Source: a virus
Virus record (IMG/VR): IMGVR_UViG_3300025687_000013
Length of the DNA stretch: 40,000 bases
Strand: one strand, 5' to 3'
This document shows, piece by piece, positions 6,005 to 39,437 of the stretch. The notes beneath the pieces are model-generated. The model was not told the origin of the DNA. It did not search any database and saw nothing but the letters and a program-made list of their open reading frames with translations. The position numbers and the translations under genes are program-made. Each line of letters opens with the position of its first letter. Position 1 is the first letter of the stretch.

Positions 6005-6958
6005 TTGACCACAATGGCATTGTGGGGGTCAGGGGTTCGACTCCCCTCGGCTCCACCAAATTTCCCATCGGAGGAACCAACCCTTCAACTGTCCACTCAG
6101 GACGCCGACATCATTCGCGAGGTCTGGTCTAACGGCGTAAGCCTTGTCCAGGTCTGGAATGATTGGCGACGGTTGTATCTTGCCTCACCCCAAGGAGTCA
6201 ATACTTGTGTTGAATTATTTTTAACACACCTCCATGACACAGGTAGGTCCCCTCAATACTGCAAAGAGTTTGGCTGGGTCCTGCGTAAGCTTGATCTGTT
6301 CATGGACACTGAGCGCCCCCTCTGTCAGGTCACCACAAAAAGTTGGTGGCGTTCTCTCGATGCAATGAGGGCTGGAAACACTGCTAGAAGGAAGGTTGGA
6401 GTGTTCCTGAACTGGTGCCTTGCCCAGGGCTACATCAAGGAACCAATCAACATTCCAGGCAAGCCAAGCTACCCCAAGGGCGACGTTGACGTCCTGACCA
6501 ACGACGAGGTTGCCTCGCTAATCAAAACCTGTCCCTCAGACTTACTAGGTCACCTCTGGCTCTGTTTGTGCATGGGTTTGAGAGTCGCTGAAGCATCCAG
6601 GGTTGAGCATCTGAAAGTAACAGAGACTCACCTAGTGGTCGGTGCCCAGGCTGCCAAGACAAAGACCAGACGCATCCTGGACATCCCTGAACACCATGGA
6701 CACTACACCCAGTTGATCAGGCCTCAGACCAACATCAGGAAACGAATGGAAGCTCTCAGGCTGAAGGCTGGTCTGACTCGATGGCCCAGGAACTGTATGA
6801 GGCACACCGCAGCCTCACATTGGTTGAACAGGCTACGGTCAGCCGAGGCTGCCGCACTTCACCTGGGCAACTCACCTGTCATGTTGCATCGGCATTACAA
6901 AGCTCTAGTGACCCGGCAGGAGTCTACTGAATTCTTTGACCTCTGGGTTGGGTTCTAG
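6005..6958 (+). CDS. int: tyrosine recombinase / phage integrase
   Basis: Catalytic pattern: R in MGLRVAEASR, H-x-x-R in CMRHTAASHW, and H/Y in VMLHRHYKAL. TTG 6005 lies 5 nt after AGGAGG; the alternative start is ATG 6014. Confidence 0.85.
   Translation: MTTMALWGSGVRLPSAPPNFPSEEPTLQLSTQDADIIREVWSNGVSLVQVWNDWRRLYLASPQGVNTCVELFLTHLHDTGRSPQYCKEFGWVLRKLDLFMDTERPLCQVTTKSWWRSLDAMRAGNTARRKVGVFLNWCLAQGYIKEPINIPGKPSYPKGDVDVLTNDEVASLIKTCPSDLLGHLWLCLCMGLRVAEASRVEHLKVTETHLVVGAQAAKTKTRRILDIPEHHGHYTQLIRPQTNIRKRMEALRLKAGLTRWPRNCMRHTAASHWLNRLRSAEAAALHLGNSPVMLHRHYKALVTRQESTEFFDLWVGF
6009..6058 (+). other. attP core candidate: 3' 50 nt of a tRNA-Ala(GGC)-like gene (anticodon arm, variable loop, T-arm, acceptor 3' strand, ACCA)
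   Basis: Anticodon stem CCACA(6009-13)/TGTGG(6021-25) with loop ATGGCAT (anticodon GGC). Variable loop GGGTC. T-arm AGGGG-TTCGACT-CCCCT. Acceptor CGGCTCC plus A plus CCA. U70 is compatible with the G3:U70 Ala identity pair. No matching 5' acceptor strand or D-arm lies upstream, so this is a fragment and not a gene. Confidence 0.75.
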
Positions 6959-6998
6959 ATGGTTCCATTTAAAAACCTGGAGATAGCCCCCCTGGACA

Positions 6999-7011
6999 GG
7001 TGTCAGTCACC
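6999..7011 (-). promoter_or_regulatory. 13-mer motif copy (minus-strand sense), exact
   Basis: The plus strand reads GGTGTCAGTCACC. It is intergenic between int (ends 6958) and ORF 7028, and is oriented against the plus-strand genes around it. Confidence 0.6.
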
Positions 7012-7027: not shown

Positions 7028-7840
7028 GTGCAACGCTACAAATTAAAGCTCGGCCTGGAGAATGATAGCATCAAACTCCAAGGCATCGGCTCTCAAATCA
7101 GGGCTGCCGCGACATTGATGCAGAAAGCATCTGTTCGAGGAGACGAGGTGGTTCCAGAGATGGTAGTAAATGGCCAGGACGTTTTCCCACTCATCTTTAA
7201 CAGGAAATCAAAGCCCACTTCAGACATGGAGGTTTGTCCATGTGAAAGCCTGAGTTGGTGTCCACTCGATGAGCCAGCACACGCAGGCGCAGCCATGAAT
7301 CATTTCTCATGGTCAGATCAATGGAAGAAAAGGTGCGAAGAAAAGCTCCAAAGCGTAGGCAACCCTACCGTTGTATTATCACTGAGAGAGACTGACAAGA
7401 TAGATGGCGGGGAGATGGTGTTACCCACAGTTGTTTACCAGAATCTAATTAACACATCAGAGGAACCAGTCCTAGTCCTGGCTGATTCTAACTGGTCCCT
7501 GCCAGACCTGGAAACATTACCAACTTGCAGGACCCTAGAGCGAACGATGAGCCACAGCCTGTTCCCCCTTCATCGAACAAGGCTCCTTGATCGAGGCATT
7601 ACTTCTAAAGCAGAGCTGTTAAATCACACCCTGGAAATGTTTGAAGACATTTACATTTTGGGCACAGCAAAAACAGTATTCTACCCGGTGTGGCACGGAG
7701 TGTTATCGGCTGGAATTTTGCTCGCTAAAAACCGTCCAAACCTGGTTTGCCTCCAAGACTTCCTAACCCCAAGGGAGAAGCAGTTTGTGAACTACTACTG
7801 CAAACGGGAAACCCACTTCTGGAACTTCTTAGACAAATGA
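7028..7840 (+). CDS. hypothetical protein, first gene of the cargo cassette
   Basis: 270-aa ORF with a GTG start. Its stop overlaps the ATG of the radical-SAM gene (ATGA), suggesting translational coupling. No family recognised by eye. Confidence 0.55.
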   Translation: MQRYKLKLGLENDSIKLQGIGSQIRAAATLMQKASVRGDEVVPEMVVNGQDVFPLIFNRKSKPTSDMEVCPCESLSWCPLDEPAHAGAAMNHFSWSDQWKKRCEEKLQSVGNPTVVLSLRETDKIDGGEMVLPTVVYQNLINTSEEPVLVLADSNWSLPDLETLPTCRTLERTMSHSLFPLHRTRLLDRGITSKAELLNHTLEMFEDIYILGTAKTVFYPVWHGVLSAGILLAKNRPNLVCLQDFLTPREKQFVNYYCKRETHFWNFLDK

Positions 7841-9030
7841 TAATTCACTCACAACACCTCGACGTCTCTTATGAGGCACAACCTAACTGCAAGACCATTC
7901 AGATAACGGTTGGTGAATGGTCAGAGAAATATGCTGCCCTTCACGGTGGTATCAGAATGATTTGTGCGACCCTGCCGCATGACCTGGTTCACAGGGACCT
8001 CTCGGTAAAAGTCGAATGCGACGGCAACATGGAGCTTGGGCAGGTCGTGAGCAGGAGTGCTAGGCATGAACCTCTAGGCCTGCATGAACACACAGAAGCT
8101 CTGAATGAGTGCGAGCAGAGAGCCATAGCAATGCCTGTCAGCCTTCAGTGGTTTGCTACTTGGAGGTGTAATTACAAGTGCGCCTACTGCTGGCAGGAGA
8201 CAGTGAGAGACAGTTACAGGAAGGACAAGCCAGCCAAAAGGTCGCCTGTAGAATGGGCTAGGGCCCTGCTATCATTACAACCTAACGAGGTCTACATCAG
8301 TGGCGGCGAGCCTACGACTCTCCCCAACTTCACCAAGATCGTTCAGGCAGTTGGCCTGGTTGTCCCCGTCAACATCACAAGCAATCTCGGTAACTCGTTT
8401 GACATCGATGCCTGGGAGAAGGAAGTCAGCCCAGATGCGATTGACTGTATTACTTTCAGTTTTCACCCAACTCAACAGTCGTTCGATGAATACTCAAGGA
8501 AGCTACGTCATTTTGTCAGTGTTTACGGTGGGAGCAAGACCGGGTCGGAGTTAGTCATGCACCCTGGGCAAACACAATACGAACAGCCATTGAGAGACTT
8601 AGACTCTGAGCTTGGGCTAAGGACGCTGAACATCGATGTGTTCCATCAACAGCCAACCATCTACCCAGCCGCACCAGGACAATGCGTGAACAAGAGGCCT
8701 GCAAGCAACCCTGCGTTGGCAAGTAAACCAAGACATGCCCCAGGCGACACAAGCCCACATTACTGTGCTGCTGGAATGACTCGCCTGAACATTGACCCGG
8801 TTGGTGATGCATACACCTGCATGTCAGCCATTGATCGAAGCAAGATGTTTGGAAAGCACACCCTCCCTCACTACTCACCAGTGGGTAATATATTCGACGA
8901 AGGGTTCAGAATGCAGCAGAAGCCTGTGCTGTGCTGGGAGACTTTTCGGTGTTCTGGCTGCGATGTCGCTAAAGTTAAAGGCTCATGGGTTGAACACCCA
9001 CACCCTTACGAACTTCCTTTGCCACAGTAA
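7837..9030 (+). CDS. radical SAM enzyme with SPASM/twitch-like C-terminal Cys-rich domain and a ~100-aa N-terminal extension
   Basis: WRCNYKCAYCWQ is a CxxxCxxC cluster motif. VYISGGEPT is the GGE SAM-binding motif. The C-terminus has YCAAGMTRLNIDPVGDAYTC and LCWETFRCSGCD. ATG 7837 is in frame with the longer ORF-track ORF (7747) and forms ATGA with the upstream stop. Confidence 0.85.
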   Translation: MIIHSQHLDVSYEAQPNCKTIQITVGEWSEKYAALHGGIRMICATLPHDLVHRDLSVKVECDGNMELGQVVSRSARHEPLGLHEHTEALNECEQRAIAMPVSLQWFATWRCNYKCAYCWQETVRDSYRKDKPAKRSPVEWARALLSLQPNEVYISGGEPTTLPNFTKIVQAVGLVVPVNITSNLGNSFDIDAWEKEVSPDAIDCITFSFHPTQQSFDEYSRKLRHFVSVYGGSKTGSELVMHPGQTQYEQPLRDLDSELGLRTLNIDVFHQQPTIYPAAPGQCVNKRPASNPALASKPRHAPGDTSPHYCAAGMTRLNIDPVGDAYTCMSAIDRSKMFGKHTLPHYSPVGNIFDEGFRMQQKPVLCWETFRCSGCDVAKVKGSWVEHPHPYELPLPQ

Positions 9031-9036
9031 AATCTC

Positions 9037-9603
9037 ATGAGACACAAAGTATTATTGGTGGGTAGTGGCCCATACATCAGGGAATGGTGGGCTTTGCACA
9101 AAGACAAAATTGGAGAAGTGAGCTGCATGAACACTGCCATTGAGGTGGTGGGTGCCAGACATCACAGATGGTATCTGAGCAGTGACTTCATGCACAACAG
9201 GCAGTGGACCTTCCAGGGTATGCGGGAGAGAATTGGAGAACACATTCTGGGCTTGAGAATCGTCGCCAGCTTCCTGTCTACCCCTCATTGGTATAACTGC
9301 CCCTATGACGGAACCATGTTGCTCAACTCCATCTACGACATACTCAACAGGGCCACAGTTGGAGAGACTCCGGTGGAGCTGAACCTGATTGGGTGTGACC
9401 TCGACTACAGTCAGCCCAAGACACATTTCTACGAGGGCGGGACTCCTGACCCCAAGAGAATACCAGACGATGTGCTGCTAGGGCACATGCACAAGGCGAT
9501 GAAAGACTTCTCGCCCATGCACAAGATCGTCAACCTGGGGCCCCAGCCATCGTTCCTTCCGTTTGAACCAGGAGACCCTGAACTGTCATGGAAACATACC
9601 TAG
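9037..9603 (+). CDS. Rossmann-like protein, possibly DUF115/MptE-like (Maf / sialyltransferase-like) glycosyl- or nucleotidyl-sugar transferase
   Basis: N-terminal KVLLVGSGPYI glycine motif and a later NLIGCDLDY resemble DUF115-family proteins. The assignment is weak. The CDS itself is well supported by its packing in the operon. Confidence 0.45.
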   Translation: MRHKVLLVGSGPYIREWWALHKDKIGEVSCMNTAIEVVGARHHRWYLSSDFMHNRQWTFQGMRERIGEHILGLRIVASFLSTPHWYNCPYDGTMLLNSIYDILNRATVGETPVELNLIGCDLDYSQPKTHFYEGGTPDPKRIPDDVLLGHMHKAMKDFSPMHKIVNLGPQPSFLPFEPGDPELSWKHT

Positions 9604-10232
9604 TCACATCTGGAACAGTATCTCACGCTCCTATTCGGACCGGTTTCTTTGAGCCATCACTGGCTGAATGTGAGCCAGTTGAGTGGGTTCATTTTGAGAA
9701 AAGGCTACCTCATGACAACACAGGAAACTTCATGCACATAGACTGGAAACATGCTGTGCTGTGGAAAATTAGGAATGCTCTCAAGTTGTGCAGCATGGTC
9801 GATGAAGGCTCGCTGGTTGTCATATCAGACCTCGACATAATCTACAGGCCTGGAGCTTTCAACAGGCTATCGGAAGAGGTTTCAGACGGTGTTTTTGCGA
9901 TGTGCGAGAACGAGCAGATGGAGATAAATGCTGGCTTGATTGCTTCCAAGAATTGCCAGGCATTCAGGTGGTTGCTGACAGAAGTTCTTGAATACATGGT
10001 TCAGCACAGTTGTCACGATCAGAACGCATTGAGGGCTGTCTCCCAGGGTCGGGTAAAGGTCTTGCCAGTTGAGTATAACAACACAAAGACCGAGAACTTG
10101 ATCGAAAGGGGAAAGGCTTTGTGCTTTCATGCAATCTGCACCATGGCAGACGAAAAACAGGGAAGTGTCTCTAAGAAATTAGCCATGCTCCAACGGTGGC
10201 TTGACAGGTGTCAGTCACCTATGGCAACTTAG
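9588..10232 (+). CDS. GT-A-type nucleotide-diphospho-sugar transferase-like protein
   Basis: LVVISDLDIIYRPG is DxD-like, followed by EINAGLIASKNCQAFRWL and HDQNALRAV. The order and spacing match the nucleotide-diphospho-sugar transferase family. Confidence 0.6.
   Translation: METYLVTSGTVSHAPIRTGFFEPSLAECEPVEWVHFEKRLPHDNTGNFMHIDWKHAVLWKIRNALKLCSMVDEGSLVVISDLDIIYRPGAFNRLSEEVSDGVFAMCENEQMEINAGLIASKNCQAFRWLLTEVLEYMVQHSCHDQNALRAVSQGRVKVLPVEYNNTKTENLIERGKALCFHAICTMADEKQGSVSKKLAMLQRWLDRCQSPMAT
10207..10219 (-). promoter_or_regulatory. 13-mer motif copy (minus-strand sense), exact
   Basis: The plus strand reads ttgacaGGTGTCAGTCACC, inside the last 26 nt of the cassette's final ORF. It is oriented against cassette transcription. 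Confidence 0.6.
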
Positions 10233-10331
10233 TTGGGCCTGGCCCCAGAGACACGTTGTCCCTGGGACTACCGGGTAATTTAGTTGTGGTTAGGGAACTA
10301 TAAGCGGTTACCTGCTAGACATACGGAGAAG

Positions 10332-10373
10332 CCCTCTCACCAGCGGTTGGATACTCAGGTGGGAGGGTTTTTT
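10332..10373 (+). terminator. Rho-independent terminator at the convergence point of the plus-strand cassette and the minus-strand late operon
   Basis: CCCTCTCACC (10332-41) pairs with GGTGGGAGGG (10358-67). This gives a 10-bp stem with one G-U pair and a 16-nt loop, followed by TTTTTT (10368-73). It lies 7 nt from the stop of the 2306-aa minus-strand ORF, so it may act on both strands. Confidence 0.7.
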
Positions 10374-10379
10374 GTGTCC

Positions 10380-13300
10380 TTAATTGTTTCTCAACTTGTC
10401 CAGGTGGTCCTGGGCTTTCTCTACTGAGCTGAAGACAGGGCCCACTCTCCTGCCCTTGTCAGAGTAGACTCTGACCCCTGCTCTGCTAGATGTCTGAACT
10501 GCCCTGAAGCCGTAACCGTCTAGGTAGATGGCTCCACCTCGGTTGTTCAGTTGTCGGGCTGGGGAGAACTTTGTCCCAGGGAAAGTTTGCCTGGCCTTCT
10601 GTCGCAGGTCCTCTGGTATTCTCAGATTATCAGCGTCGTCTGGTGACAGAGATTGAAGTTCTTCTAAGACTGCGTTGAACCTATTTCGTAGGGGTGCATT
10701 GTCCCTGTCCATACCACCATCATCGCGTCTCTTATTCCTGCTAGTTTGTCGTCTGTCAGAGCTTCTGGCCCTATCTCCTCTGCCAGCTTTTCGGTTTGCA
10801 GCAGAACGCTCGTTCGCTCTTGCTTCGTCAAGCTGGACCAGGGAGGAGTTTGCCATGTCTGAACGGTCCGATTGTAGATATCTTTGGCGTATTTTTCCTC
10901 GATCATCTGGTGTTCCTTGGTAAGTGAGCTGAACAATGTCTGGCATTTCGCCACCTCTGTTCCAACCCTGAGACTCCCATACCCTCATCATATCAGCAAG
11001 CTGATTGTTTGGTGTCCCCTGCTCTTCTGGGTTAAATTTGACCCGGTTTGTTTCCTTGAAGCCAAACGTCTCGATGGCGTCTACCCTAGCGCCTCTAGGG
11101 TTGTTAGCTGTAGGTATTGCGAATGTCTTAATCTCTGTTGCTCCTTCCTCAATGGCTTTGAGCATGATGGCAGGAAGATCAGCACCCGATGTGCCCGGCT
11201 GGTTATTAATAGGGTTGAGAATCTCAAGCCCAGCGCCATCACCTGTAGCCCTGAGAGCGAAGTAAATGTTGGAACTGCGATCTTGGCCCAGTTGAAACAC
11301 CCGCATCTCCCCAGACTTAACCATGTCCTTGACTTGCTTTTTGGGAAGTGGCTCAAGCATGGGTGATGCAAAGTTCTCTCCGATGGCTAGTGAGAAGTCT
11401 GCGCTTCCCTTTCCTGTCCTGGGCACCTCATACCAGTCACCAATTGCACCCTGAAGAACTGCCTTGGCTTGGGCTGGGTTCTTTACGTGTTCAAACTTGT
11501 CTACCCCAAACCTGCTGGCAACTTGCTCAGTGATTGAAGTGACAGGCCAGTCCCTGTCCAGGGTGTAGTAACTGTCTTTGCCTCGGCGCTTATAGTGGTC
11601 TGGGAACAGTTTCTCTGCTGAAATAGGTTTCTCCAGGACACCAACCAACTTGCCCCTCACTGCAAAGTCGTATGACCTGTGGCTTGGAATTCCATTCTCG
11701 CCTAGCTTGACGACGTCGCCTCTAGGGTCGAGCTTCAGCACCAGTAACGCCTGCCCATGAGGCTGCCCCCTAAACTCTGGCTGAATGGTTGCGTCTAGTA
11801 TTCGAGACACTCTAGGGAAGCCTGCCTCAACAAACTTGGCCTGATCAATTCTCTCAGCAAACATAGCCCTCTTTTCAAAGGGCAGGCTGTTTAGGTAAGC
11901 GAGCAACTTGTCTGGGTTCTCCAGCCCTGGGAAGTCGGGGAAAACCAGGGTCTTGCCTTTGCCTTTCCCTGCTGACTTCTCCCAATTTGAAAACTCACTA
12001 TTCAGGCTCTTCAGGTTCTCCTCAGATATTCTGCCTCCCTTGATGTATGCCACAACGGTTTGGCTGATAGCGTCAGAGACATCAGTGTTTGATTTGTGAG
12101 ACTGAGGAGTCATGGAGACCACAACACCGTAGACCCCGTCTTGAGCCATCTTTGACTTGATCTTGCTGACACCAGGGCCCTTGTTGGCCCAGGCGAGGCC
12201 TGCTTTCTGAATGCCCTTGAGAAGTGGGAAGTATGGTCCACCCTTTAATTCGATAGGGACAAGGATGTCAGAGCTGTCGATGCCACTGTAAACGTCTCCT
12301 GCCGCCGTGAGGTCTGCCTTGATTGGGAATAGCTTCATTCCAACCAGGTCTTTGCCTGTAAGCTTCTTGACCTTCTTAGAGTCCACCAGTTTGCTGTAAG
12401 TCTCAGACACAGTCCTGGCTGGTGAATACCTGGGAACACCCTGTGCAGAGACCTTCGAGTTAACGTCCTCGTTGAGTGCCACGTAATTGGCCTGTAAGCC
12501 GTCTCTGAGGGTCTTTTGCTCAACCTGTAACGGTCTACCCTTGGAGTCCTTCGTCTGCTTCCAGAGCTTTAATCTAGGAAGCATTTCATCGTAGAACCCT
12601 CTCATGCCATTACCACCCAGACGGAGGTCGTCTCCTTCCAGGAGGGCAGACCTCATTCCGTTTTGCTCAAGGTCACCCTCCATACTGTCGAGGGCCCTCT
12701 TAGTGAGTTCCTTTCCGATGTAATCAGGAAGCTTGTCCTTGGTGATGCCAGTTTCAACTGTCTTGAAGACGTCCTCATCTGGGACCCTGGCCATCAGCTC
12801 GTAAGTGCCGTCGTCGTATTCAATAACATCTAACCCAGAGACTTTGTCACCGAGGTTATACCTGGCGTTCTGGGTTTCACCGGTTGTCCAAGCGATAGCA
12901 TCGTAGCCCTCATCAGCAGCAAGCTTGAGCATTCGCTTCATCGAGAACTCAGGCCAGGACTTCTTGAAGGGGGCGTTGGGGACTCCTTTTAGTTCATCAA
13001 ACTTTATGCGCCTCAACATGTTTCGCCTTTGCCTCATTTCTGTAGTCATTGGCTTGTATTGGTTTTGCATGAAAAACCGCAAGTCTTCGTGAGCTTTAGC
13101 TTTCATTGCATCAGGGGCATTGTCGTGAAACATTTGCTCCTCAATCTTCTGTAATCGCAGTTTTAAAACCTGAAGATCGTTTACCTGCTCAAGAACATCA
13201 AGTTCCCTTGCTTCTTCTTGAGTCAGCCTCCTAGTTCCATACCCCTTGCCTCTTCCTGCTTGATGCCAATCAGACTGAATTTCCTCCAGGAACAGAATCT

Positions 13301-16300
13301 TCTCACCGTCAGAGCCTATTCGGTCGTTGTGGCGAACGTGGGCAACGATGTTTGCTTGGTCGAAGTGACCAGAGGAGTAAGGACCGAAACGAGAGTCACG
13401 AACGGTCAGCAACCTCTCGGTGTATGTCCCTGGCTCTGCCCCTGGTTCTGTGTATTCAGAGAACTTGCCGCCTCCTCTCTCTTCAATTGGGACAAGCTCT
13501 GGGTAAAATTCTCCAGAGAGTTCCCCCTTAAATGCTTCGTAAAGGGCTTTGTCAGCCTCCTGTAAGCTATTGTATGATTCTTCAAAGACAGGGAACTCTC
13601 TGCTCAAAGTGGAGTAGTCAACTAGCTCAGGCTGGCCGTTCCTTCCTTCTCTTAGAATTGCAAATTCGTTCTCAGGGACATCGTCGAAAACAGTGTTTTT
13701 AAGGTCTTCCCCGCTAAACACTTTAAGTCTATTTTTCTCTATCAGAGCCCCAGCAAACCTAACCCAGTTGTCGTCTATGAACTTGTAGGCTGCGTCGTTG
13801 CTTTCAAAAGTTGGAAGTCCCATGGACTGGGACATGTAGTCTCCGTCAATGTTGGTGATTTCCACAACTGGAACACCTCCTCCGCCCTCCGTCACCTCCA
13901 CCATCTCAATCTGGTTAGCCTTGATGAAGTTCAAGACATCTTCCTTGGTGGTGGTTGGGTTGTCTTTCAGGAAGACGTCCAGGCCAATGTCCTCAAGTTC
14001 CTCCTTCTTGACCCCAGCCTTGTCCATGGCTTTCAGGAACTGTTGAGAGGTGCCCTTCTTCTGCTGCATTCCCTCGATGGCCTCCTGGGCCTTGGAATAC
14101 ATTCCCAGGTTGTCCAGCTCCCGTTGTGGTGCCTCTGGTGCCCTGGTAGGGCTGAACATCTGTTTGGCCTTGAGGTGGTCAAATGGGCCCATGCCAAACG
14201 GTGTCCCGTTGGCACTGGTGTCTCTCAAGGAAGCTATGCGTTCAATGCGTAGGTTCTTGTAGATTCGGTTCCCACTGTTCTTGTCCCAGGCAGAGTAGAG
14301 AGGGTTCTTGACGTAGTTATTGGTCTGAAACAGTGCGTTGATGATATTGTGCTTGTCATCTGTTAGCCCAGTTTTGCCTGAAATGTCGTTACGGTGGTTT
14401 TCCAGATACTTCCTAGCATCCTCCAGGAACGCATCTACGTCGTTGTTCCATGGGAGGAGCTTTGAAGTGTCTCTCCAAGCAGCAACTCGGCCCCTGACAT
14501 AGTTTAGGTCAATTACTCTGACGTTGACATTACCGTTGTTAGTGATGAACCACTCATGGGGGATGTAGTTGTATACCGTCGCAGGAATGTCCCCCTTCTT
14601 GCCGGTTAGAGAGTTGACCCAGCTATCTCCCTGGGCCCTGGTGCCGATGCCGAAATAAAATGAGCGAATGGCTCTACCACTGGCAATGGCTTGGTTGATC
14701 TCATCGATGGTCCCCCTGAAGTTCTCCATCATTGGAGCGTCAGAGTATTTAGACTGAAGAAACTTCCCTCGATACTCTTGCTTGCTTGGGTCAGGTGTCC
14801 CGTCAGGGTTGTATTTCTGCTTGAGGCTGACCTCTGGCATTGTTGCATCTGACACCTCGGTATCTAGCGCCTCCTTGACCTCTTTACGCCTCTGACGAAT
14901 GCGTTTTTGAATGTCCTTCTTGTTCTTGGCCTTCTTCCTACCACCTGACTGGGAGGAGCCTTGAGAGTTGCTAGATGCTTTGTCGTCACCCTGGCTCTTT
15001 GGGGTGTCGTTGACGTCGTCGAAGTATTCTTTGCCAACACCGTCCCAGTTGACCCTGTCGTCAGATGCGTCCTTTTTGACGTTGGTCCGTTCCTCTCTGC
15101 CCTGGGCAAAAGCCTTGTATTGTCGGTTCAGGTCTCTGGCGTATTTCTTGTAGGACTTTGAAAGTTCAGAGTCTAACTTTAGGTTGATACCGAAAATGTT
15201 GTCTGGCTTGCTGGCCTGCTCAGGTGACGACTGCTTAGGTTCCTTCTTGTAGCCTAAGCCATCGAGACCTAGCCCGCCCTTCATGACGTCAATGACACTG
15301 AACGCAGTCCCCTTGGCCTCATTGATAGCCATACCGAGTCCAGTTATCGGGGTTTGACCAAACGGTGCTGCGGCCCTTTGAACCGCAGTCTTGAGTTTGC
15401 CTAGCTTAGAGTTGTTCCTGACGTAGTTGTGGAGACCTTGGTCGGTTGAAACAGACATGAAGTTCTCTGAGAACATCTCTCGAACGACCCAGTCTTGGTC
15501 CCCGTCGTTGAGATACTGACGATCAAGTTCTCTGACTCTGCTTTCAACCTCTTCAGGAGTTGGTGTTCTTCGCTTTTCCGCCTGAAGCATCTGCCCTACG
15601 TATGACCGCTTGATTTCGTTTAAGTCATACTCATTCTTGACCTGGTTAACGACAGTCTCTTTGTCAACCACACCACTGTCCCACATGGCCTCACCTACTT
15701 CGTGAAGCAGGGTGTCGGACAGTTTCGTGCTGTCAGCGTTAAGAATGATCTCTTTGCTTTGAGAGTCGTAGTAGCCTTCTACACCTTTCCCTCTAACGGC
15801 TTTGGCGAACTCGTCGCTAGGCAATAGTTTAATATCAACCCTGCCTCGAAGAACTTCTGAAGCAGTGGCCAGGTCTTCAATGGCCCTCCTGGCCATGCTG
15901 CGTAAATTTCCAGATGGCTCGTCAACGACTTCCAGGTTGGACATCTCAATCAACCTGTTCATTGCGCCCTCGCTGCCCTTATGTCGGCCAACAAAGTCGT
16001 TTATGCTGCCCTGCATCTTTGCTGCATCACGTTGGCCCGTGATGGTGTCTACAGTGTAGCCACCAAGGCCACCCAGGCCGCCTGTAAGGCCTGCTGCAAA
16101 GGCACCAGCCTTGGCGCCCTCGGTTCCTTCTGCAAGGCCCCCCAGGGTTGCTCCAGCCACAGAGCCATAAGCAGCACCCCTGCTAATGTCCTTGGCGAGC
16201 CCTAGCGCAACGTCTCCCTTGAACTGGCTGGCTGCGGATGCTGCCATTCTAACACTCTCAGGCAGGCTCATGTTCTTGGAGGCTCTCTCCAAGGGGCCCA

Positions 16301-17300
16301 TATTTGTCGGCAGCTCTGGCAAATCTTCGATAGACTTGGTGAGAGCTGAACCGGCAGGCCCAATGCGGTCGGCGGCCTCTACACCTCCCTTAATCACTGC
16401 TGTGGGGACGGGTGCTGCACCTAGCCCGAAATACGTGAGTTTGCTGGCATTACGTCCAGCAAGTTCCTGCGCCCAGTCTGGCGTGATCTCGACTATCTTG
16501 TCCTTTATCGAGTCCTTGGTTGATTGCAGGGCTTCTCCCGTTGCAACCATGGCTGCCCCAACCTTCTTGCCCGCAGCCCTCATGGCCTTGGCCTCAAGCT
16601 GTGCTAGTTGCTTGCCGAAGCCCTTTTTGACTAGGCCAGAGGCAGCACCACCAACCACTGTCCCGATGTCAGCAACGTAGCTGGCACCCTCTGCCAGGGC
16701 TGGGTCAACATCAACGTCTCCAGTCTGGTTGTAGCCAAAGAATGCGTCTGGGTCTTCCGAGAGTGCCAGATGATCAATTAGGTCTTCTTGACCAAGGCGA
16801 GCTTTCTCTCGCATAGCTTCCAGCTTCCTGATCTCTCTCCAGCCCCTGAAGCGTTCTCTTGTCAGGGCTTCGTCCCTGGTAAATCTGTCCTTGGCTTTCT
16901 GGGTAAGAATGCCCAAGTCGGCTGTGCCTCTCAGGACGCCCTCTCCCAGGGAGTTGACTATTCTTTGGAATTCTCCTTCAGCCAGGTTGGCAGCAAATGC
17001 TCGGCCACCGTCGTAGAGTTCCTTGAACATGGTCTTGCCAACCTGAATGGCATCGTCCATTCCAAAGCTCTGCTTCTCCTGGGTCTCTAGCCACTCCTTC
17101 CACTGCTCATAGGCCTGGTCAGTGTCACCAGGGACAAACGTCAGGTCATCGAGCCTGGAGGCTGAGTCATCAAACTCTATTGATGTTGCGACATTGTCCT
17201 GTGATTGAGCAGTTGGCTCATCATCAAACACCAGACTGGTTGCTACCCCTGTTGAAACTTCAGGTTCATCGTCAAATTGTAAGCCTGTCGCAATTGCCAT
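10380..17300 (-). CDS. giant (2306 aa) multidomain virion-associated / polyvalent-type protein, last gene of the late operon
   Basis: Uninterrupted 6.9-kb ORF. Its Gly/Ala-rich N-terminal third resembles internal/ejection proteins. Central blocks HFDQANIVAHVRHNDRIGSDGEKILFLEEIQSDWHQAG and APFKKSWPEFSMKRMLKLAADEGYDAIAWTTGETQNARY resemble domains I recall from large polyvalent proteins of phages and conjugative elements. There is a GNAT-like block near the C-terminus. Confidence 0.6.
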   Translation of the reverse strand: MAIATGLQFDDEPEVSTGVATSLVFDDEPTAQSQDNVATSIEFDDSASRLDDLTFVPGDTDQAYEQWKEWLETQEKQSFGMDDAIQVGKTMFKELYDGGRAFAANLAEGEFQRIVNSLGEGVLRGTADLGILTQKAKDRFTRDEALTRERFRGWREIRKLEAMREKARLGQEDLIDHLALSEDPDAFFGYNQTGDVDVDPALAEGASYVADIGTVVGGAASGLVKKGFGKQLAQLEAKAMRAAGKKVGAAMVATGEALQSTKDSIKDKIVEITPDWAQELAGRNASKLTYFGLGAAPVPTAVIKGGVEAADRIGPAGSALTKSIEDLPELPTNMGPLERASKNMSLPESVRMAASAASQFKGDVALGLAKDISRGAAYGSVAGATLGGLAEGTEGAKAGAFAAGLTGGLGGLGGYTVDTITGQRDAAKMQGSINDFVGRHKGSEGAMNRLIEMSNLEVVDEPSGNLRSMARRAIEDLATASEVLRGRVDIKLLPSDEFAKAVRGKGVEGYYDSQSKEIILNADSTKLSDTLLHEVGEAMWDSGVVDKETVVNQVKNEYDLNEIKRSYVGQMLQAEKRRTPTPEEVESRVRELDRQYLNDGDQDWVVREMFSENFMSVSTDQGLHNYVRNNSKLGKLKTAVQRAAAPFGQTPITGLGMAINEAKGTAFSVIDVMKGGLGLDGLGYKKEPKQSSPEQASKPDNIFGINLKLDSELSKSYKKYARDLNRQYKAFAQGREERTNVKKDASDDRVNWDGVGKEYFDDVNDTPKSQGDDKASSNSQGSSQSGGRKKAKNKKDIQKRIRQRRKEVKEALDTEVSDATMPEVSLKQKYNPDGTPDPSKQEYRGKFLQSKYSDAPMMENFRGTIDEINQAIASGRAIRSFYFGIGTRAQGDSWVNSLTGKKGDIPATVYNYIPHEWFITNNGNVNVRVIDLNYVRGRVAAWRDTSKLLPWNNDVDAFLEDARKYLENHRNDISGKTGLTDDKHNIINALFQTNNYVKNPLYSAWDKNSGNRIYKNLRIERIASLRDTSANGTPFGMGPFDHLKAKQMFSPTRAPEAPQRELDNLGMYSKAQEAIEGMQQKKGTSQQFLKAMDKAGVKKEELEDIGLDVFLKDNPTTTKEDVLNFIKANQIEMVEVTEGGGGVPVVEITNIDGDYMSQSMGLPTFESNDAAYKFIDDNWVRFAGALIEKNRLKVFSGEDLKNTVFDDVPENEFAILREGRNGQPELVDYSTLSREFPVFEESYNSLQEADKALYEAFKGELSGEFYPELVPIEERGGGKFSEYTEPGAEPGTYTERLLTVRDSRFGPYSSGHFDQANIVAHVRHNDRIGSDGEKILFLEEIQSDWHQAGRGKGYGTRRLTQEEARELDVLEQVNDLQVLKLRLQKIEEQMFHDNAPDAMKAKAHEDLRFFMQNQYKPMTTEMRQRRNMLRRIKFDELKGVPNAPFKKSWPEFSMKRMLKLAADEGYDAIAWTTGETQNARYNLGDKVSGLDVIEYDDGTYELMARVPDEDVFKTVETGITKDKLPDYIGKELTKRALDSMEGDLEQNGMRSALLEGDDLRLGGNGMRGFYDEMLPRLKLWKQTKDSKGRPLQVEQKTLRDGLQANYVALNEDVNSKVSAQGVPRYSPARTVSETYSKLVDSKKVKKLTGKDLVGMKLFPIKADLTAAGDVYSGIDSSDILVPIELKGGPYFPLLKGIQKAGLAWANKGPGVSKIKSKMAQDGVYGVVVSMTPQSHKSNTDVSDAISQTVVAYIKGGRISEENLKSLNSEFSNWEKSAGKGKGKTLVFPDFPGLENPDKLLAYLNSLPFEKRAMFAERIDQAKFVEAGFPRVSRILDATIQPEFRGQPHGQALLVLKLDPRGDVVKLGENGIPSHRSYDFAVRGKLVGVLEKPISAEKLFPDHYKRRGKDSYYTLDRDWPVTSITEQVASRFGVDKFEHVKNPAQAKAVLQGAIGDWYEVPRTGKGSADFSLAIGENFASPMLEPLPKKQVKDMVKSGEMRVFQLGQDRSSNIYFALRATGDGAGLEILNPINNQPGTSGADLPAIMLKAIEEGATEIKTFAIPTANNPRGARVDAIETFGFKETNRVKFNPEEQGTPNNQLADMMRVWESQGWNRGGEMPDIVQLTYQGTPDDRGKIRQRYLQSDRSDMANSSLVQLDEARANERSAANRKAGRGDRARSSDRRQTSRNKRRDDGGMDRDNAPLRNRFNAVLEELQSLSPDDADNLRIPEDLRQKARQTFPGTKFSPARQLNNRGGAIYLDGYGFRAVQTSSRAGVRVYSDKGRRVGPVFSSVEKAQDHLDKLRNN

Positions 17301-21337: not shown

Positions 21338-23560
21338 TCAAAGCATAGCGTGTCGGCCCTCTCGACGTTGACCGTCAGTGGTGCCGGTGGTGATTGAATG
21401 AATTCTGATTCGGCCTTCCAGGCCTTGGAACTTGATCTGGAAGTAGGAGCCCCTTTGGTTCACTCGGAGCTTGTGAGTGTAATACTGGTGCAGGTCTAGG
21501 ACGGTGCCTGTTGAGCCCAGGACGGTTCCTCCTCCTGGTTCTGTTGCATCGAGAATGACTGAGTAGTCTTCCCTGCCCTCTGTCTCATGGTCGTCGTTGA
21601 TGTTGGTGATTGGCCAGTCATCAACTGCGAAAGTCATGTATTTGGTTCTGCTCTGGAACGTGTATGATGTGTCGTCAAGGAGGACAGACTCTTCCTTCAC
21701 GCCATCAGTGATGGCAGTGATTCTGTATTTAGGGTCCCAAGTAGAGATGAACACCTGGGCGTCTTGCAGTCGCCTCCTGTTACCAGAGGCAAAACCGTAA
21801 CCCCTGGTCAGAACCATGAACTGAATCTCACTGTCCCTAACCATGACCTTCTCAGAACAGATGACCGTGATGTATGGGTCATCGGCCTTGATAAGCATCG
21901 GTGTTGAACTCGTGAACCTGACACCACAGTCCAGGGCTTCAACCGTGTCGGTTCCATGGGTCCAACCGCCACTGCTGTAGCCAGCATAGAGGTTGTCTGC
22001 CGCATTATCGCATGGGTCTGCTGTTACATCTCCCATGTTCCAAACACCGTCAGTGTCTGAAGCGCCTGTCCTTGGGTCTTCGACTAGAGGGTTAACACCG
22101 TCTGTCAAGACATCAGCATCACTCTCAATCAGGGTGTTCTGCCTGGTTCCATAGACCTCGGTGCCATTGTTGACCTGAACCATGTTTCCGATGGCAGGCT
22201 GGCCTACCAGGAGGACGTCGCATGAGTAAGCGTTCTGCTCCTGCTTGACCATCTCTGTCTCACCGTATTCGTAGAGACCTACGACCCCAGTGTAATCGAC
22301 AAAAAACAGGCTTTCTGTCCCTTGGAAATCAGCCACAAAGAAATACTTAATCTTGATGGCATCACCCTCGTCGTAGCCTGCCCAGGCCTTGTTGAGAAAA
22401 TCATAGACCAAGACCGCATTGTTCTGCTGAGAGCCATCTAGAGGGACGCTGAGATAGTATCTGTTCTGCCAGTAGGCACCGCAGGCGGTTTCCTTGGCCA
22501 CAGACATGTCTATGCGGTCAATGATGGGTTGTATAGGGGTGCTAACGGGCTCAGAAACGCCCTGTAGCTTGTTTTGTTCAGTCTGCCTAAGTGAGACTAC
22601 TCCACGTTGCGAAAGGAACCACAGGTCGCTTCCTGTGTTGACCACAGACCTTGGCCCAACCAGTCCAAACTCAGAGGTAACCTGATCAAGGGCAGCATTG
22701 GTGCCCCAGTCGCCAACCAGATTGTTGACTGCATAGATGCTGGTCGATTTGAAGACAACGACAGACTGGTCGTTGAACTTAAACAGTCGCTCTATGTTGT
22801 CACTGTCGCCCTGGTTGATTTTGAACGAAGCATACACAGGGTCATACGACGTATAGTCAAGTATGTCTGACACCGCGACATGGTCAGCCTTATAACCCAA
22901 AGCAGGTTTGTGAGGAACGAGGAGGCGGTTTTGGAAAAAGAGGGTAGACTTTGAGTTTGGTATGTTCTCAGTTCCACCAGCCCCGGATGCCTCCGGTGCC
23001 TCGATAAAGCCTTCTTCAAAATTAGATAGGACCAGGTGGGTATCGTCGTGTCCCCTGGAGAGAATGCACTTATCGAAGGCTTGTGTGAACCAATACACAT
23101 CCTCCGTATTAGCGTCTTGGTAGAGTGTTGTTGGAACTGTCAGAGAGACAGAACACCGGACTGGCACTGCTGTGTTGCCAGGACGAAGCCGGTAGATAAC
23201 GATGTTAGTGTTATCGACTGATGAAGCTACTAGAACCCAGTCAACACCGTTAGGGTCGTTCCACACACCTACTCCGTAGACGTCCCCAAAGTTACCCCTG
23301 AGAACACCGTCAAAGTTGATGTCACCCTCGTTCCAGTTGATGGGCCATTCCCAGCTAGACTTAATGTTTGTCCAGCCAACTGGCATGGTGCCCTTTCTGG
23401 GCTCTGCTATGCCGAATCGGAAACGTGCGTTCCTGGCGTCTGATACGTAGCCAGGAGGAAGGAGATGAGGACTGGTCCTCATGTCAACACCGATAAAACC
23501 ATTGTCCCCATCTGTCAGTGGGACGTCGTCGTTGATTGAATAGTTTCGGTGTTGCCTCAT
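21338..23560 (-). CDS. large tail protein, possibly podovirus tail tubular B / nozzle-like
   Basis: 740 aa. The N-terminus reads DMRTSPHLLPPGYVSDARNARFRFGIAEPRKG. Size and position in the tail module fit this call. The assignment is tentative. Confidence 0.4.
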   Translation of the reverse strand: MRQHRNYSINDDVPLTDGDNGFIGVDMRTSPHLLPPGYVSDARNARFRFGIAEPRKGTMPVGWTNIKSSWEWPINWNEGDINFDGVLRGNFGDVYGVGVWNDPNGVDWVLVASSVDNTNIVIYRLRPGNTAVPVRCSVSLTVPTTLYQDANTEDVYWFTQAFDKCILSRGHDDTHLVLSNFEEGFIEAPEASGAGGTENIPNSKSTLFFQNRLLVPHKPALGYKADHVAVSDILDYTSYDPVYASFKINQGDSDNIERLFKFNDQSVVVFKSTSIYAVNNLVGDWGTNAALDQVTSEFGLVGPRSVVNTGSDLWFLSQRGVVSLRQTEQNKLQGVSEPVSTPIQPIIDRIDMSVAKETACGAYWQNRYYLSVPLDGSQQNNAVLVYDFLNKAWAGYDEGDAIKIKYFFVADFQGTESLFFVDYTGVVGLYEYGETEMVKQEQNAYSCDVLLVGQPAIGNMVQVNNGTEVYGTRQNTLIESDADVLTDGVNPLVEDPRTGASDTDGVWNMGDVTADPCDNAADNLYAGYSSGGWTHGTDTVEALDCGVRFTSSTPMLIKADDPYITVICSEKVMVRDSEIQFMVLTRGYGFASGNRRRLQDAQVFISTWDPKYRITAITDGVKEESVLLDDTSYTFQSRTKYMTFAVDDWPITNINDDHETEGREDYSVILDATEPGGGTVLGSTGTVLDLHQYYTHKLRVNQRGSYFQIKFQGLEGRIRIHSITTGTTDGQRREGRHAML

Positions 23561-38900: not shown

Positions 38901-39437
38901 CTAGCTCAAAGTAGTAACCACAGCCTTCAAAGTCGGCTTTGGGTGTTGGTTCATCATCCATTGGACGTCTGTTAATTGATCTCTGGGGTATAGGTAGACA
39001 ATGCGACCCTGTATGGGCTCCATGTATTCGGGTTTCTCGACCTCTGATGTGGGCGCTATGCCCACGATGGTGAACGTGTGGTCCTGACACTCCACCAGGG
39101 CTAGAAAGTCCGTCTTATGGGCCTTCAGGTTCGCTATCAGGTTGCCTCCGATCACTGGGGTAGTCTTGATGTCAACTGTCCTGCCATCTGGCAGTGTCAC
39201 ATCAACTACGCATGGCCCTGAACTGTCCAGGTCAGGCCACAGGTTGAAGGCCTTAGCAAAGGCCAGTTCTCCTGCTACCCCATTGATGTCGGCTGTTTCT
39301 CTGGCACCTGGAGACTTGTCCAGGTGCCCCATCTGGTCATTGGTCCTGGTTGGGCCAGTGACTGCTATGCGCTCATGCGCTAAGTGCCTGGCTAGTGCCA
39401 GCTCTGATCGGCTCAGTGTTATGGTAATCATTGCCAC
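38901..39437 (-). CDS. PD-(D/E)xK (restriction-endonuclease-fold) nuclease-like protein
   Basis: GVAGELAFAKAFNLWPDLD...VVDVTLPDGRTVDIKTT...DFLALV follows the E...D...(D/E)xK order seen in many small phage nucleases. Confidence 0.5.
   Translation of the reverse strand: MAMITITLSRSELALARHLAHERIAVTGPTRTNDQMGHLDKSPGARETADINGVAGELAFAKAFNLWPDLDSSGPCVVDVTLPDGRTVDIKTTPVIGGNLIANLKAHKTDFLALVECQDHTFTIVGIAPTSEVEKPEYMEPIQGRIVYLYPRDQLTDVQWMMNQHPKPTLKAVVTTLS

Follow-up and report, generated by a model that had tools for sequence, protein, structure and literature searches.

A four-gene cassette with a radical-SAM enzyme and glycosyltransferase-like proteins beside the integrase of an uncultured phage, a candidate module for tailoring host envelope glycans

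The phage O-antigen conversion modules described so far, such as gtrABC of Shigella and Salmonella phages, the phage O-acetylases and the polymerase switches of the D3/epsilon15 type, are accessory, non-essential genes that adjoin the integrase or the attachment region and are transcribed apart from the lytic genes. Their products modify sugars, and the expected outcome is an altered glycan on the host surface and the exclusion of other phages. The cassette described here would be like them in each of these respects. However, such converters depend on membrane proteins (the GtrA flippase, the bactoprenol glucosyltransferase GtrB, a serotype-specific GT-C enzyme or an acyltransferase_3 protein) and have no radical-SAM enzyme, whereas the cassette encodes one and its proteins carry no transmembrane segment and match no O-antigen converter family. 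With neither membrane proteins nor gtr-family matches, a gtrABC-type system was rejected.

The cassette belongs to an uncultured phage of about 40 kb with an integrase and a podovirus-like genome (IMG/VR record IMGVR_UViG_3300025687_000013). The whole stretch analysed, 40,000 nucleotides, is referred to below as the window. Beside the integrase gene, four genes occupy positions 7028-10232 of the plus strand, with the following features in and around them:

6005..6958, plus strand: integrase, a tyrosine recombinase (phrog_1, E 9.6e-10), context gene immediately 5′ of the cassette
6995..7011, plus strand: 17-mer GACAGGTGTCAGTCACC, copy 1, 17 nt 5′ of the ORF1 start, with the 13-mer core GGTGTCAGTCACC at 6999-7011
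7028-7840, plus strand: ORF1, 270 aa, GTG start
7837-9030, plus strand: radical-SAM gene (gene 2), 397 aa, ATG start within a longer TTG ORF
9037-9603, plus strand: ORF3, 188 aa
9588-10232, plus strand: ORF4, 214 aa
10203..10219, plus strand: 17-mer GACAGGTGTCAGTCACC, copy 2, identical, within the 3′ end of ORF4
about 10326-10373, plus strand: intrinsic terminator hairpin, a GC-rich 10-bp core stem followed by a U6 run

The genes are joined by an ATGA overlap between the ORF1 stop and the radical-SAM start, a 6-nt gap before ORF3 and a 16-nt overlap between ORF3 and ORF4, exactly as an earlier note on this DNA had claimed in describing a tight operon beside the integrase. An independent round of gene calling on the source contig returned the same four genes and bore out the further claim that these, int and a small ORF of 67 aa are the only genes on the plus strand. 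The integrase, which gives weak XerA/XerC matches in NCBIfam, keeps its position in sister phages (L011-L013, L179, L187, L190). The operon is closed by the hairpin, placed between ORF4 and a convergent 2306-aa gene; its folding energy (dG -30.7 kcal/mol, z-score -3.49, with 0 of 200 shuffles folding as well) and the U-run behind it agree with the strong terminator that had been proposed. No transmembrane segment is predicted in any of the four proteins, which are thus expected to be soluble and cytoplasmic.

Two further points of the note, that flanking motif copies bracket the cassette in a way that would fit insulation and that parts of it look AT-rich, fared less well. Both copies are real, but the 13-mer core has nine exact copies in the window versus 0.11 expected, and is therefore a genome-wide element and not a bracket specific to the cassette. 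The copy upstream of ORF1 is conserved in the sister phage L011, and the 17-mer is probably a phage-wide regulatory site. As for base composition, the cassette is the lowest 3.2-kb stretch at 49.8% GC versus 51.9% in the window, a marginal difference; the GC of each gene falls inside the range of the remaining genes and codon usage does not set the cassette apart (p about 0.1).

The sequence of gene 2 marks it as a genuine radical-SAM enzyme. The earlier note had named failure at the profile threshold as a reason to abandon its view of the cassette, and the protein passes PF04055 with 39.4 bits against a gathering cut-off of 29.5. In an alignment of 23 sequences, the cluster motif C111xxxC115xxC118 (8167-8190) and G156GEP (8302-8313) are invariant, as are five C-terminal cysteines (C310-x12-G323-x4-C328, C366, C372 and C375; 8764-8961) that include a CX12GX4C motif of the twitch type. 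The proposed SPASM/twitch-like C-terminus is thus present as this motif with three further cysteines, but no SPASM profile of Pfam or NCBIfam matched. Similarly, the supposed N-terminal extension of about 100 aa is a real region (aa 1-100, with Y12 and R73 invariant in the 23 homologs), but it is a domain conserved across the family and no add-on, and it matches no peptide-recognition family; its sequence reads as mostly beta-strand and not as winged-helix. Profile matches to PDB entries are limited to viperin-like proteins, MoaA and SuiB, with E values of 1e-8 to 1e-10 restricted to the generic core, and the SuiB alignment spans the CX12GX4C motif. A viperin-type system was rejected, since the similarity to viperin and MoaA covers only the generic first ~100 core residues (35.9 bits vs a family cut-off of 180).

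ORF4, the constant partner of ORF3, contains D81-L-D83 (a DxD motif), N114-A-G and H143-D-Q, all invariant in its family. It can be placed among relatives of GT-A nucleotide-diphospho-sugar transferases of the Nucleotid_trans type, as had been suggested, because an intermediate homolog (L188:6545-7183, ORF4 HMM E 1e-20) reaches PF03407 at 22.6 against a gathering score of 22, and because profile-profile alignment by hhalign to the PF03407-positive N-terminal domains of ORF3-fusion proteins gives a probability of 41% (E 2.8e-4, 168 columns) with DxD, NAG and DQ in register and controls at 0.5% or less.

ORF3 belongs to a family of 91 representative clusters with the motifs GS(G/A)PY, NN(A/S), GCDxxY, THFY and DPxR. 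Its AF2 model (pLDDT 92, pTM 0.90) is a Rossmann-like domain, and ORF3-like domains occur fused to PF03407, GT8, Gly_transf_sug, methyltransferase and sulfotransferase domains (Pfam). The N-terminal G-S-G-P strand-loop, the NN and G-C-D-x-x-Y motifs and the Rossmann-like fold are shared with DUF115/MptE (Maf) and GT29/GT42 sialyltransferase-like transferases, and Foldseek matches in BFVD (E 1e-4 to 1e-3) are viral proteins, some of them named MptE-like, DUF115 or GT29. However, TM-scores are only 0.4-0.57 (0.47-0.57 for the matches in that E range), no PDB match of the model is significant, and hhalign to one GT29 sequence gives a probability of 1.3%. The DUF115 likeness claimed earlier therefore holds as a remote structural one with a sub-threshold bridge via L201, but not at family level: the ORF3 domain matched nothing in Pfam among 62 family members, with 0 of 62 hitting PF01973 or PF00777 at an E value of 0.01 or below. 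From the remote fold class of the model and the fusions, ORF3 is probably a sugar transferase.

ORF1 has no sequence match in Pfam, NCBIfam, PHROG, PADLOC or PDB, and its AF2 model has a pLDDT of 41. Its family conserves G19-x2-S22-Q, R120-x-T-D-K124, D153 and P180-x-H-R183, and hhalign to GT11 gives E 0.01-0.02 and a probability of 2-4% with motifs in register, a weak resemblance at motif level by which ORF1 is possibly a glycosyltransferase of the GT11/fucosyltransferase superfamily. ORF1 homologs adjoin radical-SAM homologs in at least six independent contexts.

No counterpart of the cassette was found among 50,697 sequenced phage genomes, and the combination matched nothing in INPHARED, PADLOC systems or specific NCBIfam families, which upholds the view that it is no described module. 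Its parts, however, recur across many marine phages and O-antigen-like loci of bacteria, and the cassette is modular: sister phages retain ORF3 and ORF4 without the radical-SAM gene, beside the giant gene, and elsewhere a PF03407 GT-A domain and a C-terminal ORF3-like domain form a single protein (P0082, P0095). The radical-SAM gene, often with ORF1, is found again in T4-like marine myophage contigs (65-133 kb), where radical-SAM, ORF1-like, ORF3-like, methyltransferase and glycosyltransferase genes stand together 3′ of the DNA polymerase and clamp loader genes. Among its phage neighbours are genes for a methyltransferase, Sulfotransfer_2, an SDR epimerase, UDP-glucose dehydrogenase, GT4, GT2/Anp1 and GT11, and in L022 CTP_transf_3 (CMP-sugar synthetase) and GT29 lie directly 5′ of it. 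Bacterial homologs occur in the orders ABC_tran, GT4, ManC (GDP-mannose), GT4, two methyltransferases, radical SAM and multiple GT4 (L177/L178), and GT4, methyltransferase, radical SAM and GT4 (L176); in the Omnitrophota locus L182 the order is radical SAM, methyltransferase, GDSL and PMT_2. A study of pelagimyophages described LPS-type glycosyltransferases and 'radical SAM cassettes' in a hypervariable host-recognition cluster and proposed alteration of the host surface (PMC7029224).

Among the functions listed in the earlier note, glycan modification is favoured by these neighbourhoods; the evidence speaks against RiPP chemistry and the modification of nucleic acids. We propose, with about an even chance of being right, that this is a cytoplasmic glycan-tailoring moron cassette acting on a host envelope polysaccharide. 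It would consist of two exchangeable sub-modules, ORF3 with ORF4 and ORF1 with the radical-SAM gene. The former may be a sugar transferase pair that adds residues to an acceptor glycan, ORF3 being perhaps remotely akin to DUF115/GT29, a class that uses CMP-activated acidic sugars. The radical-SAM enzyme, with one putative twitch-type auxiliary Fe-S site, would perform a radical step (oxidation, epimerisation or dehydration are candidates) on a sugar, nucleotide-sugar or glycan residue, and so make or edit the residue that the transferases handle. Transcribed separately, opposite all lytic genes and up to its own terminator, the cassette would behave as a conversion (moron) module. It has no genes for sugar-nucleotide synthesis, a flippase, an initiating transferase or the membrane proteins on which the classical O-antigen converters of phages rely, and would therefore depend fully on host pathways; the target may be a polysaccharide assembled in the cytoplasm, that is, an O-antigen or capsule of the ABC-transporter type, or the LOS core. 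If true, remodelling of the host surface would alter the receptor landscape for superinfecting phages.

The main rival, which we consider unlikely, is that the transferases, using a sugar supplied or edited by the radical-SAM enzyme, act in the cytoplasm on the phage's own capsid, tail or fibre proteins before these are assembled, and so change how the particle adsorbs, how stable it is or how it is recognised. DUF115 (Maf) proteins are protein (flagellin) glycosyltransferases, and soluble, cytoplasmic enzymes would suit such a role. The fusion protein P0082 (PF03407 and ORF3-like), encoded between head-completion and Mu-F/alginate-lyase genes in the head/tail morphogenesis module of another phage, L184, and the GT4 gene within the tail module of the present phage (23557-24585) fit virion glycosylation equally well, and DUF115-like relatives of ORF3 lie among structural genes in L201. 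Related pelagimyophage cassettes also stand in the tail-fibre 'host recognition cluster' (PMC7029224). However, the cassette is antisense to every structural gene, beside the integrase and with its own terminator, which is not expected for late co-expression, and the bacterial homologs lie in ABC-transporter/ManC/GT4 polysaccharide loci and not in protein-glycosylation loci.

It is quite improbable that the radical-SAM enzyme acts on a nucleotide or base which the transferases then glycosylate, giving a sugar-bearing hypermodified base for restriction evasion. The core is nearest in sequence to NTP-acting enzymes, but through the same generic residues and far under the family cut-offs. The phage does have a dNMP kinase gene (39373-39936, phrog_139 E 2e-42), of a kind frequent in phages with modified nucleotides, and the glucosylation of DNA by phage glycosyltransferases is well known. 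Such enzymes are also discussed in the pelagimyophage study (PMC7029224). Against this, profile searches and gene calls revealed, neither within the cassette nor next to it, any gene of the base-hydroxymethylase, deazaguanine or thymidine-hypermodification kind. The homologs in bacteria sit within polysaccharide loci, and the partner enzymes (sulfotransferase, GT11, GT29, GT4, SDR and UDP-glucose dehydrogenase) typically work on glycans and not on DNA. Least probable is RiPP-type or protein maturation, in which the conserved N-terminal domain would bind a peptide for crosslinking or epimerisation and later glycosylation: weak partial matches of the core to the mycofactocin, PqqE, SkfB and PapB maturases and the likeness to SuiB across the first SPASM motif speak for it, but there is no PqqD/RRE or SPASM profile match, no winged-helix character, no conserved small ORF beside the gene in more than 15 contexts and just five auxiliary cysteines, and the neighbours are consistently carbohydrate enzymes.

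Returning to the preferred glycan-tailoring reading, the radical-SAM enzyme resembles twitch/SPASM enzymes that act on sugars or nucleotides, such as BtrN and MoaA (more distantly anSME and SuiB), in its CxxxCxxC cluster, GGE motif and C-terminal CX9-15GX4C hairpin motif with further cysteines behind it for an auxiliary Fe-S cluster, and BtrN also in its carbohydrate-pathway context. It differs in its own conserved N-terminal domain, in matching no SPASM/twitch family profile, and in having five auxiliary cysteines, not seven or eight, arranged C-x5-C-x2-C. The bacterial homolog loci resemble O-antigen or capsule loci of the ABC-transporter type with terminal tailoring, such as methyl/phosphomethyl capping by WbdD in E. 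coli O8/O9a and β-Kdo capping by WbbB in Klebsiella/Raoultella, in their ABC_tran, ManC and several GT4 mannosyltransferase-like genes and in the SAM methyltransferases beside the radical-SAM gene. These capping systems are, like the cassette, wholly cytoplasmic and soluble, and by analogy the cassette may be linked to chain-end modification; unlike the bacterial loci it carries tailoring enzymes only, and to our knowledge no described O-antigen capping system has a radical-SAM component. The hypervariable 'host recognition cluster' cassettes of pelagimyophages and cyanomyophages bring together radical-SAM, ORF1-like, ORF3-like, methyltransferase and glycosyltransferase genes; the present set differs from them in forming a compact four-gene operon in a podovirus-like genome of about 40 kb with an integrase.

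The window represents a phage genome that was assembled from a metagenome (ENA contig k141_238575, 40,018 bp), and many samples, estuarine and marine ones among them, yielded the same phage at ~40 kb. It had no match in a DNA search of 50,697 INPHARED phage records, among which its capsid protein has distant podovirus-type relatives (≤30% identity) in phages of marine and soil Proteobacteria. DNA and tblastn searches, the latter with the radical-SAM enzyme (rSAM) and ORF3 as the queries from the cassette proteins, found no counterpart of the cassette, the giant gene convergent with it, rSAM or ORF3 in these 50,697 phages. Nearly all genes lie on the minus strand, including those for a DnaB-type helicase, exonuclease, dNMP kinase, capsid, scaffold and tail proteins, and both ORF and independent gene calls agree with the earlier note that the integrase, a small ORF of 67 aa and the four cassette genes are the only plus-strand genes.

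6005-6958, plus strand: integrase
7028-7840, plus strand: ORF1 (270 aa)
7837-9030, plus strand: gene 2, rSAM (397 aa)
9037-9603, plus strand: ORF3 (188 aa)
9588-10232, plus strand: ORF4 (214 aa)
~10326-10373: terminator hairpin followed by U6, closing the operon (dG -30.7 kcal/mol, z -3.5)

The four reading frames with their ATGA overlap at 7837, 6-nt gap and 16-nt overlap proved exact and were reproduced by an independent gene caller, and the strong terminator expected after the cassette is in place. The cassette is transcribed separately beside the integrase, with its own terminator. Its supposed AT-richness fell away, GC being just 2 points below that of the genome and codon usage not distinct, and these differences are too small to claim a foreign origin. 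Maximum 19-residue Kyte-Doolittle hydropathy is 0.8-1.3 in all four proteins, so that no transmembrane helices are predicted. The 2306-aa protein encoded convergently (10380-17300, minus strand) has no Pfam match itself; its homologs in sister phages L179 and L180 carry an ART-PolyVal domain (ADP-ribosyltransferase of polyvalent proteins), and its sequence relatives suggest a giant injected “polyvalent” protein.

The cassette had also been described as bracketed by two motif copies pointing against it, at 6999 and 10207, an arrangement that would fit insulation from lytic read-through. Both copies are real, and identity over 17/17 nt, as the 17-mer GACAGGTGTCAGTCACC at 6995 and 10203, is limited to these two sites flanking the cassette. 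The 13-mer (GGTG-N5-CACC) has nine exact copies in the window versus 0.11 expected.

3869, 4527, 5596 (minus strand), 6999, 10207, 29736, 32994, 38274 (minus strand) and 39451: copies of the 13-mer GGTGTCAGTCACC

Minus-strand genes start 11-38 nt downstream of most copies, and the nearest relative of the phage shares the motif; together with its nine genome-wide copies this makes it a genome-wide regulatory element and not a cassette-specific bracket, and the insulation idea was dropped. GGTG-N5-CACC can form a 4-bp hairpin or half-palindromic operator, and the 13-mer is probably a phage-specific promoter or operator.

The strongest functional evidence on the cassette is given by gene neighbourhoods. 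Homologs covering the whole of rSAM are found in ~40-kb sister phages and in T4-like contigs of 65-133 kb, where they follow closely after the DNA polymerase and clamp-loader genes. Planctomycetota and Omnitrophota have homologs too, and Elusimicrobiota more distant ones. The bacterial homologs sit in polysaccharide loci.

L177, bacterial locus: ABC transporter, GT4, ManC, GT4, two methyltransferases, rSAM, multi-GT4
L176, bacterial locus: GT4, methyltransferase, rSAM, GT4
L182, bacterial locus: rSAM, methyltransferase, GDSL, PMT_2

The phage neighbours of rSAM are Methyltransf_23, Sulfotransfer_2, SDR epimerases, UDP-glucose dehydrogenase, GT4, GT2/Anp1 and GT11, and one phage homolog has a CMP-sugar synthetase and a GT29 sialyltransferase directly upstream. 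An ORF1 homolog lies beside rSAM, either upstream or downstream, in six or more arrangements that are independent of each other, and ORF3 homologs accompany it in three T4-like arrangements. In sister phages L187/L190 (5142-7193) and L188 (4432-7183), ORF3 and ORF4 are kept at the matching position beside the giant gene without rSAM, and ORF1 and rSAM are replaced by a 295-aa unassigned protein, or by a 325-aa protein and Methyltransf_24. In other sister phages ORF3 and ORF4 are absent, and rSAM has partners of the sulfotransferase, Gly_transf_sug or methyltransferase type. The cassette, which the earlier note had read as one cargo of four genes, therefore consists of two exchangeable sub-modules, ORF1 with rSAM and ORF3 with ORF4, both taken from a common stock of genes for glycan tailoring, and the families of the cassette are consistently embedded in glycan pathways. 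“Radical SAM cassettes” together with LPS-type glycosyltransferases have been noted in the hypervariable host-recognition cluster of pelagimyophages, where alteration of the host surface was proposed without functional work (PMC7029224).

Gene exchange is concentrated in the region next to the integrase. Further small accessory genes lie in this cargo region of sister phages (L012 5364-5777, L187 4517-4927), among them one for a 136-137-aa secreted-looking protein, read as SleB-like, and one for a ~200-aa protein replacing ORF1. Contigs L007/L008/L100 and L099, deposited as SAR202 and Rhodospirillaceae MAG, carry rSAM homologs and look like phage DNA, with genes for ThyX, dCMP deaminase and SSB and one that is Gad2-like; L099 equals the IMG/VR viral contig L013 in size (19,342 bp) and rSAM match (56% identity). 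These bin labels, the only and unreliable hints of a host, are likely to be binning artefacts.

Gene 2 is a radical-SAM enzyme, as first read: it scores 39.4 bits with PF04055 (gathering score 29.5, E 9e-10), and C111xxxC115xxC118 (the CxxxCxxC motif) and G156-G-E-P (GGE) do not vary among 23 homologs, the most distant of them 26% identical. The ~100-aa N-terminal region pointed out earlier exists, but it is no add-on, because Y12 and R73 are invariant in the 23-homolog alignment, which marks it as a conserved family domain rather than something added in this protein alone; many homologs have another N-terminal domain of ~150 aa besides. As for the C-terminus, called SPASM/twitch-like, at most the second half of the name applies. 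A SPASM domain has CX9-15GX4C and then further Cys ligands, seven to eight Cys in all, and a twitch domain has fewer. SPASM models (PF13186, TIGR04085) gave no Pfam match at E ≤1 and were absent among the best 25 of 42 NCBIfam matches, these 25 being partial, mostly over the first ~100 core residues, and far below their cut-offs. Five C-terminal Cys are invariant in the 23 homologs (C310-x12-G323-x4-C328, C366, C372-x2-C375), of which only three, spaced C-x5-C-x2-C, follow the CX12GX4C motif. Among PDB sequences, viperin-like proteins, MoaA and SuiB alone matched the family profile (E 1e-8 to 1e-10), with CX12GX4C included in the alignment to SuiB. From the Cys pattern and these profile results we call rSAM twitch-like, probably with one auxiliary cluster.

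Among the matches listed, rSAM reached no model specific to the twitch family, to RiPP maturases, to viperin or to any other group. Membership in viperin/pVip is excluded by scores far below the NCBIfam cut-offs (NF038283, 35.9 bits vs 180; TIGR04278, 18.9 vs 450), and the sole PADLOC match is a partial pVip over the generic core, residues 103-209. The family has no name and no characterised member. Two side observations concern its relatives: T4-like contig L196 (3200-5108) carries two tandem short rSAM-like genes (316-318 aa) in place of the full-length rSAM of its relatives, and in Omnitrophota locus L182 (652-3690) the gene immediately preceding the family rSAM and its methyltransferase is a canonical rSAM/SPASM gene.

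ORF4 has no Pfam match itself at E ≤1, and its profile found nothing meaningful among PDB sequences; nevertheless its assignment as a GT-A glycosyltransferase is reasonably supported. The motifs D81-L-D83, N114-A-G116 and H143-D-Q145 are invariant in the family and in register with PF03407-type domains, a sister-phage homolog (L188:6545-7183, ORF4 HMM E 1e-20) passes PF03407 with 22.6 vs a gathering score of 22, and hhalign to PF03407-positive domains gave a probability of 41% (E 2.8e-4, 168 columns), with unrelated controls at ≤0.5%.

ORF3 is a predicted Rossmann-like domain of the transferase class, and in other proteins it occurs joined to GT-A domains. A HMMER scan of 1.84 billion representatives collected 91 clusters of ~180-200-aa relatives, and an ORF3-like domain follows a PF03407 GT-A domain in 7/62 members; other fusions involve GT8, Gly_transf_sug, methyltransferase and sulfotransferase domains. 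By the Rosetta-stone argument, such fusions tie ORF3 to enzymes of the ORF4 type and, more broadly, to glycan tailoring. One of them, P0082 in an unrelated phage (L184 7198-12372), stands after capsid and head-completion genes, preceded by a gene with a weak Capsule_synth (KpsC/KpsS-like) match and followed by Mu-F-like and alginate-lyase genes. The ORF3 domain has no Pfam model of its own and ORF3 matched none; its AlphaFold2 model (39 sequences) is predicted to be Rossmann-like with pLDDT 92 and pTM 0.90. With Foldseek, no PDB structure matched this model significantly (best E 4e-3, TM 0.3), and a few GT29 sialyltransferases matched weakly (TM ~0.3, probability 0.3-0.4); matches in the viral structure library BFVD had E 1e-4 to 2e-2 and TM 0.37-0.57, the best being uncharacterised phage proteins (E 1e-4 to 1e-3, TM 0.47-0.57) and the weaker (E 4e-3 to 2e-2) including proteins annotated MptE-like, DUF115 and GT29. 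Neither hhalign against a GT29 sequence, which was not significant, nor the ORF3 profile against PDB sequences gave anything meaningful. A distant relative (L201:5572-6210, ORF3 HMM E 2e-7) reaches 24.2 bits with PF01973 (DUF115; gathering score 34.6), in an alignment confined to the last 30 positions of the profile, and PF01973 is absent among the 25 of 32 Pfam families listed for the 62 family members. The label “DUF115-like” is thus right as a statement of remote fold class, and membership in PF01973 itself does not hold.

ORF1, in which no motif had been recognised, found no match in any library searched, including Pfam and PDB sequences. A word-indexed search gave four close homologs only, from which the AlphaFold2 model was unusable (pLDDT 41), and homologs in other phages are 24-39% identical. 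Conserved are G-x-G-S-Q near the N-terminus, L-R-E-T-D-K, S-D and P-x-H-R. Signatures of GT11 and other fucosyltransferases are GGLGNQ, HxRRGD and a C-terminal S/W motif, and the resemblance of the ORF1 motifs to those of GT11/GT23 is a lead, not a result. The alignment by hhalign to PF01531-positive phage GT11 runs end to end (218-223 columns) with G-x-G-S-Q, L-R-E-T-D-K and S-D in register, at E 0.011-0.021 and a probability of only 2-4%. Against 16 neighbour families, hhalign of ORF1, ORF3 and ORF4 stayed at background, about 2% or less (highest ORF1 vs GT11, 2.3%, and vs c52, 2.0%), and phmmer and HMM searches of the three against neighbours of distant rSAM homologs found no hidden paralogs. 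The rSAM subfamily, ORF1 and ORF3, three of the four cassette proteins, belong to no curated family.

Taken together, the cassette probably encodes enzymes directed at sugars or glycans, and the full reading, host-surface target included, is evenly poised. rSAM would perform a radical step on a sugar, nucleotide-sugar or glycan residue, by analogy with BtrN-type enzymes an oxidation, epimerisation or dehydration, and ORF1, ORF3 and ORF4 would transfer sugars from donors supplied by the host. The acceptor would be a host envelope polysaccharide finished in the cytoplasm (ABC-transporter-type O-antigen or capsule, or LOS core), and the outcome an altered receptor in the infected or lysogenic cell. 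The earlier note had named beforehand two results that would speak against its reading: placement of the genes in a well-described pathway did not occur, and where rSAM might have failed profile thresholds, PF04055 was passed and the SPASM part alone failed.

That the cassette enzymes glycosylate the virion instead is improbable, although another phage, L184, does carry a PF03407 and ORF3-like fusion within its head/tail morphogenesis module and the phage of the window has a GT4 in its own tail module; the position of the cassette on the opposite strand and on the integrase side argues against late co-expression. The GT4-type gene (23557-24585, minus strand; phrog_2170 E 2e-28; Glyco_trans_1_4/Glycos_transf_1) is flanked by that of a 740-aa amidase-like/structural protein and by small tail-region genes, and is a second, separate sugar-transfer function of the phage, which may glycosylate virion parts. 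Hypermodification of DNA, which we consider very unlikely, has in its favour the generic viperin/MoaA-like similarity of the rSAM core, a dNMP kinase elsewhere in the genome and no other point. Such kinases often accompany non-canonical nucleotides, and beside this one (39373-39936, minus strand; phrog_139 E 2e-42; PF21448) no modification genes were seen. A role in RiPP maturation, despite the SuiB alignment, is hardly to be expected of an enzyme with no PqqD-type (RRE) match in Pfam, no SPASM domain and no conserved small ORF adjoining it as a precursor in >15 contexts.

Modification of the host surface, our preferred reading, would matter because which phage can infect which cell is decided by phage genes that alter the glycans of the cell surface, and in the ocean this shapes the turnover of very abundant bacteria. 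Glycan-tailoring cargo is an ordinary role for phage accessory regions, and its chemistry here is what we infer. A recurrent and unstudied set of parts, namely a twitch-type rSAM, two Pfam-less families (ORF1 and ORF3, the latter gaining a confident predicted fold) and a GT-A transferase, moves as modules among podovirus-like temperate phages, T4-like marine myophages and bacterial polysaccharide loci. We tentatively go one step further and suggest, as a possibility, that rSAM founds an uncharacterised family with a new radical reaction and forms, with swappable transferases of ORF1, ORF3/ORF4, methyl- and sulfo-types, a mobile glycan-editing toolkit of bacteria and phages, common to O-antigen-like loci and at least two unrelated abundant marine phage groups, with which phages might remodel their hosts' surface or that of their virions. 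The rSAM reaction, once identified, would give a new enzyme activity and an explanation of the pelagimyophage cassettes, and four soluble proteins of 188-397 aa from a widespread, experimentally tractable module are defined targets for biochemistry.

Compared with known systems, gtrABC/acyltransferase loci are defined by membrane components, whereas the cassette does without them, giving no Pfam, NCBIfam or PHROG match to GtrA, GtrB, Gtr(type) or Acyl_transf_3. To our knowledge, radical-SAM chemistry occurs in no described phage glycan-conversion system, nor in O-antigen tailoring. The enzymes nearest to rSAM are the twitch-type BtrN and MoaA, although it falls in no named family, and by function the closest known kind of system is the glycan modification of phage lysogenic conversion.
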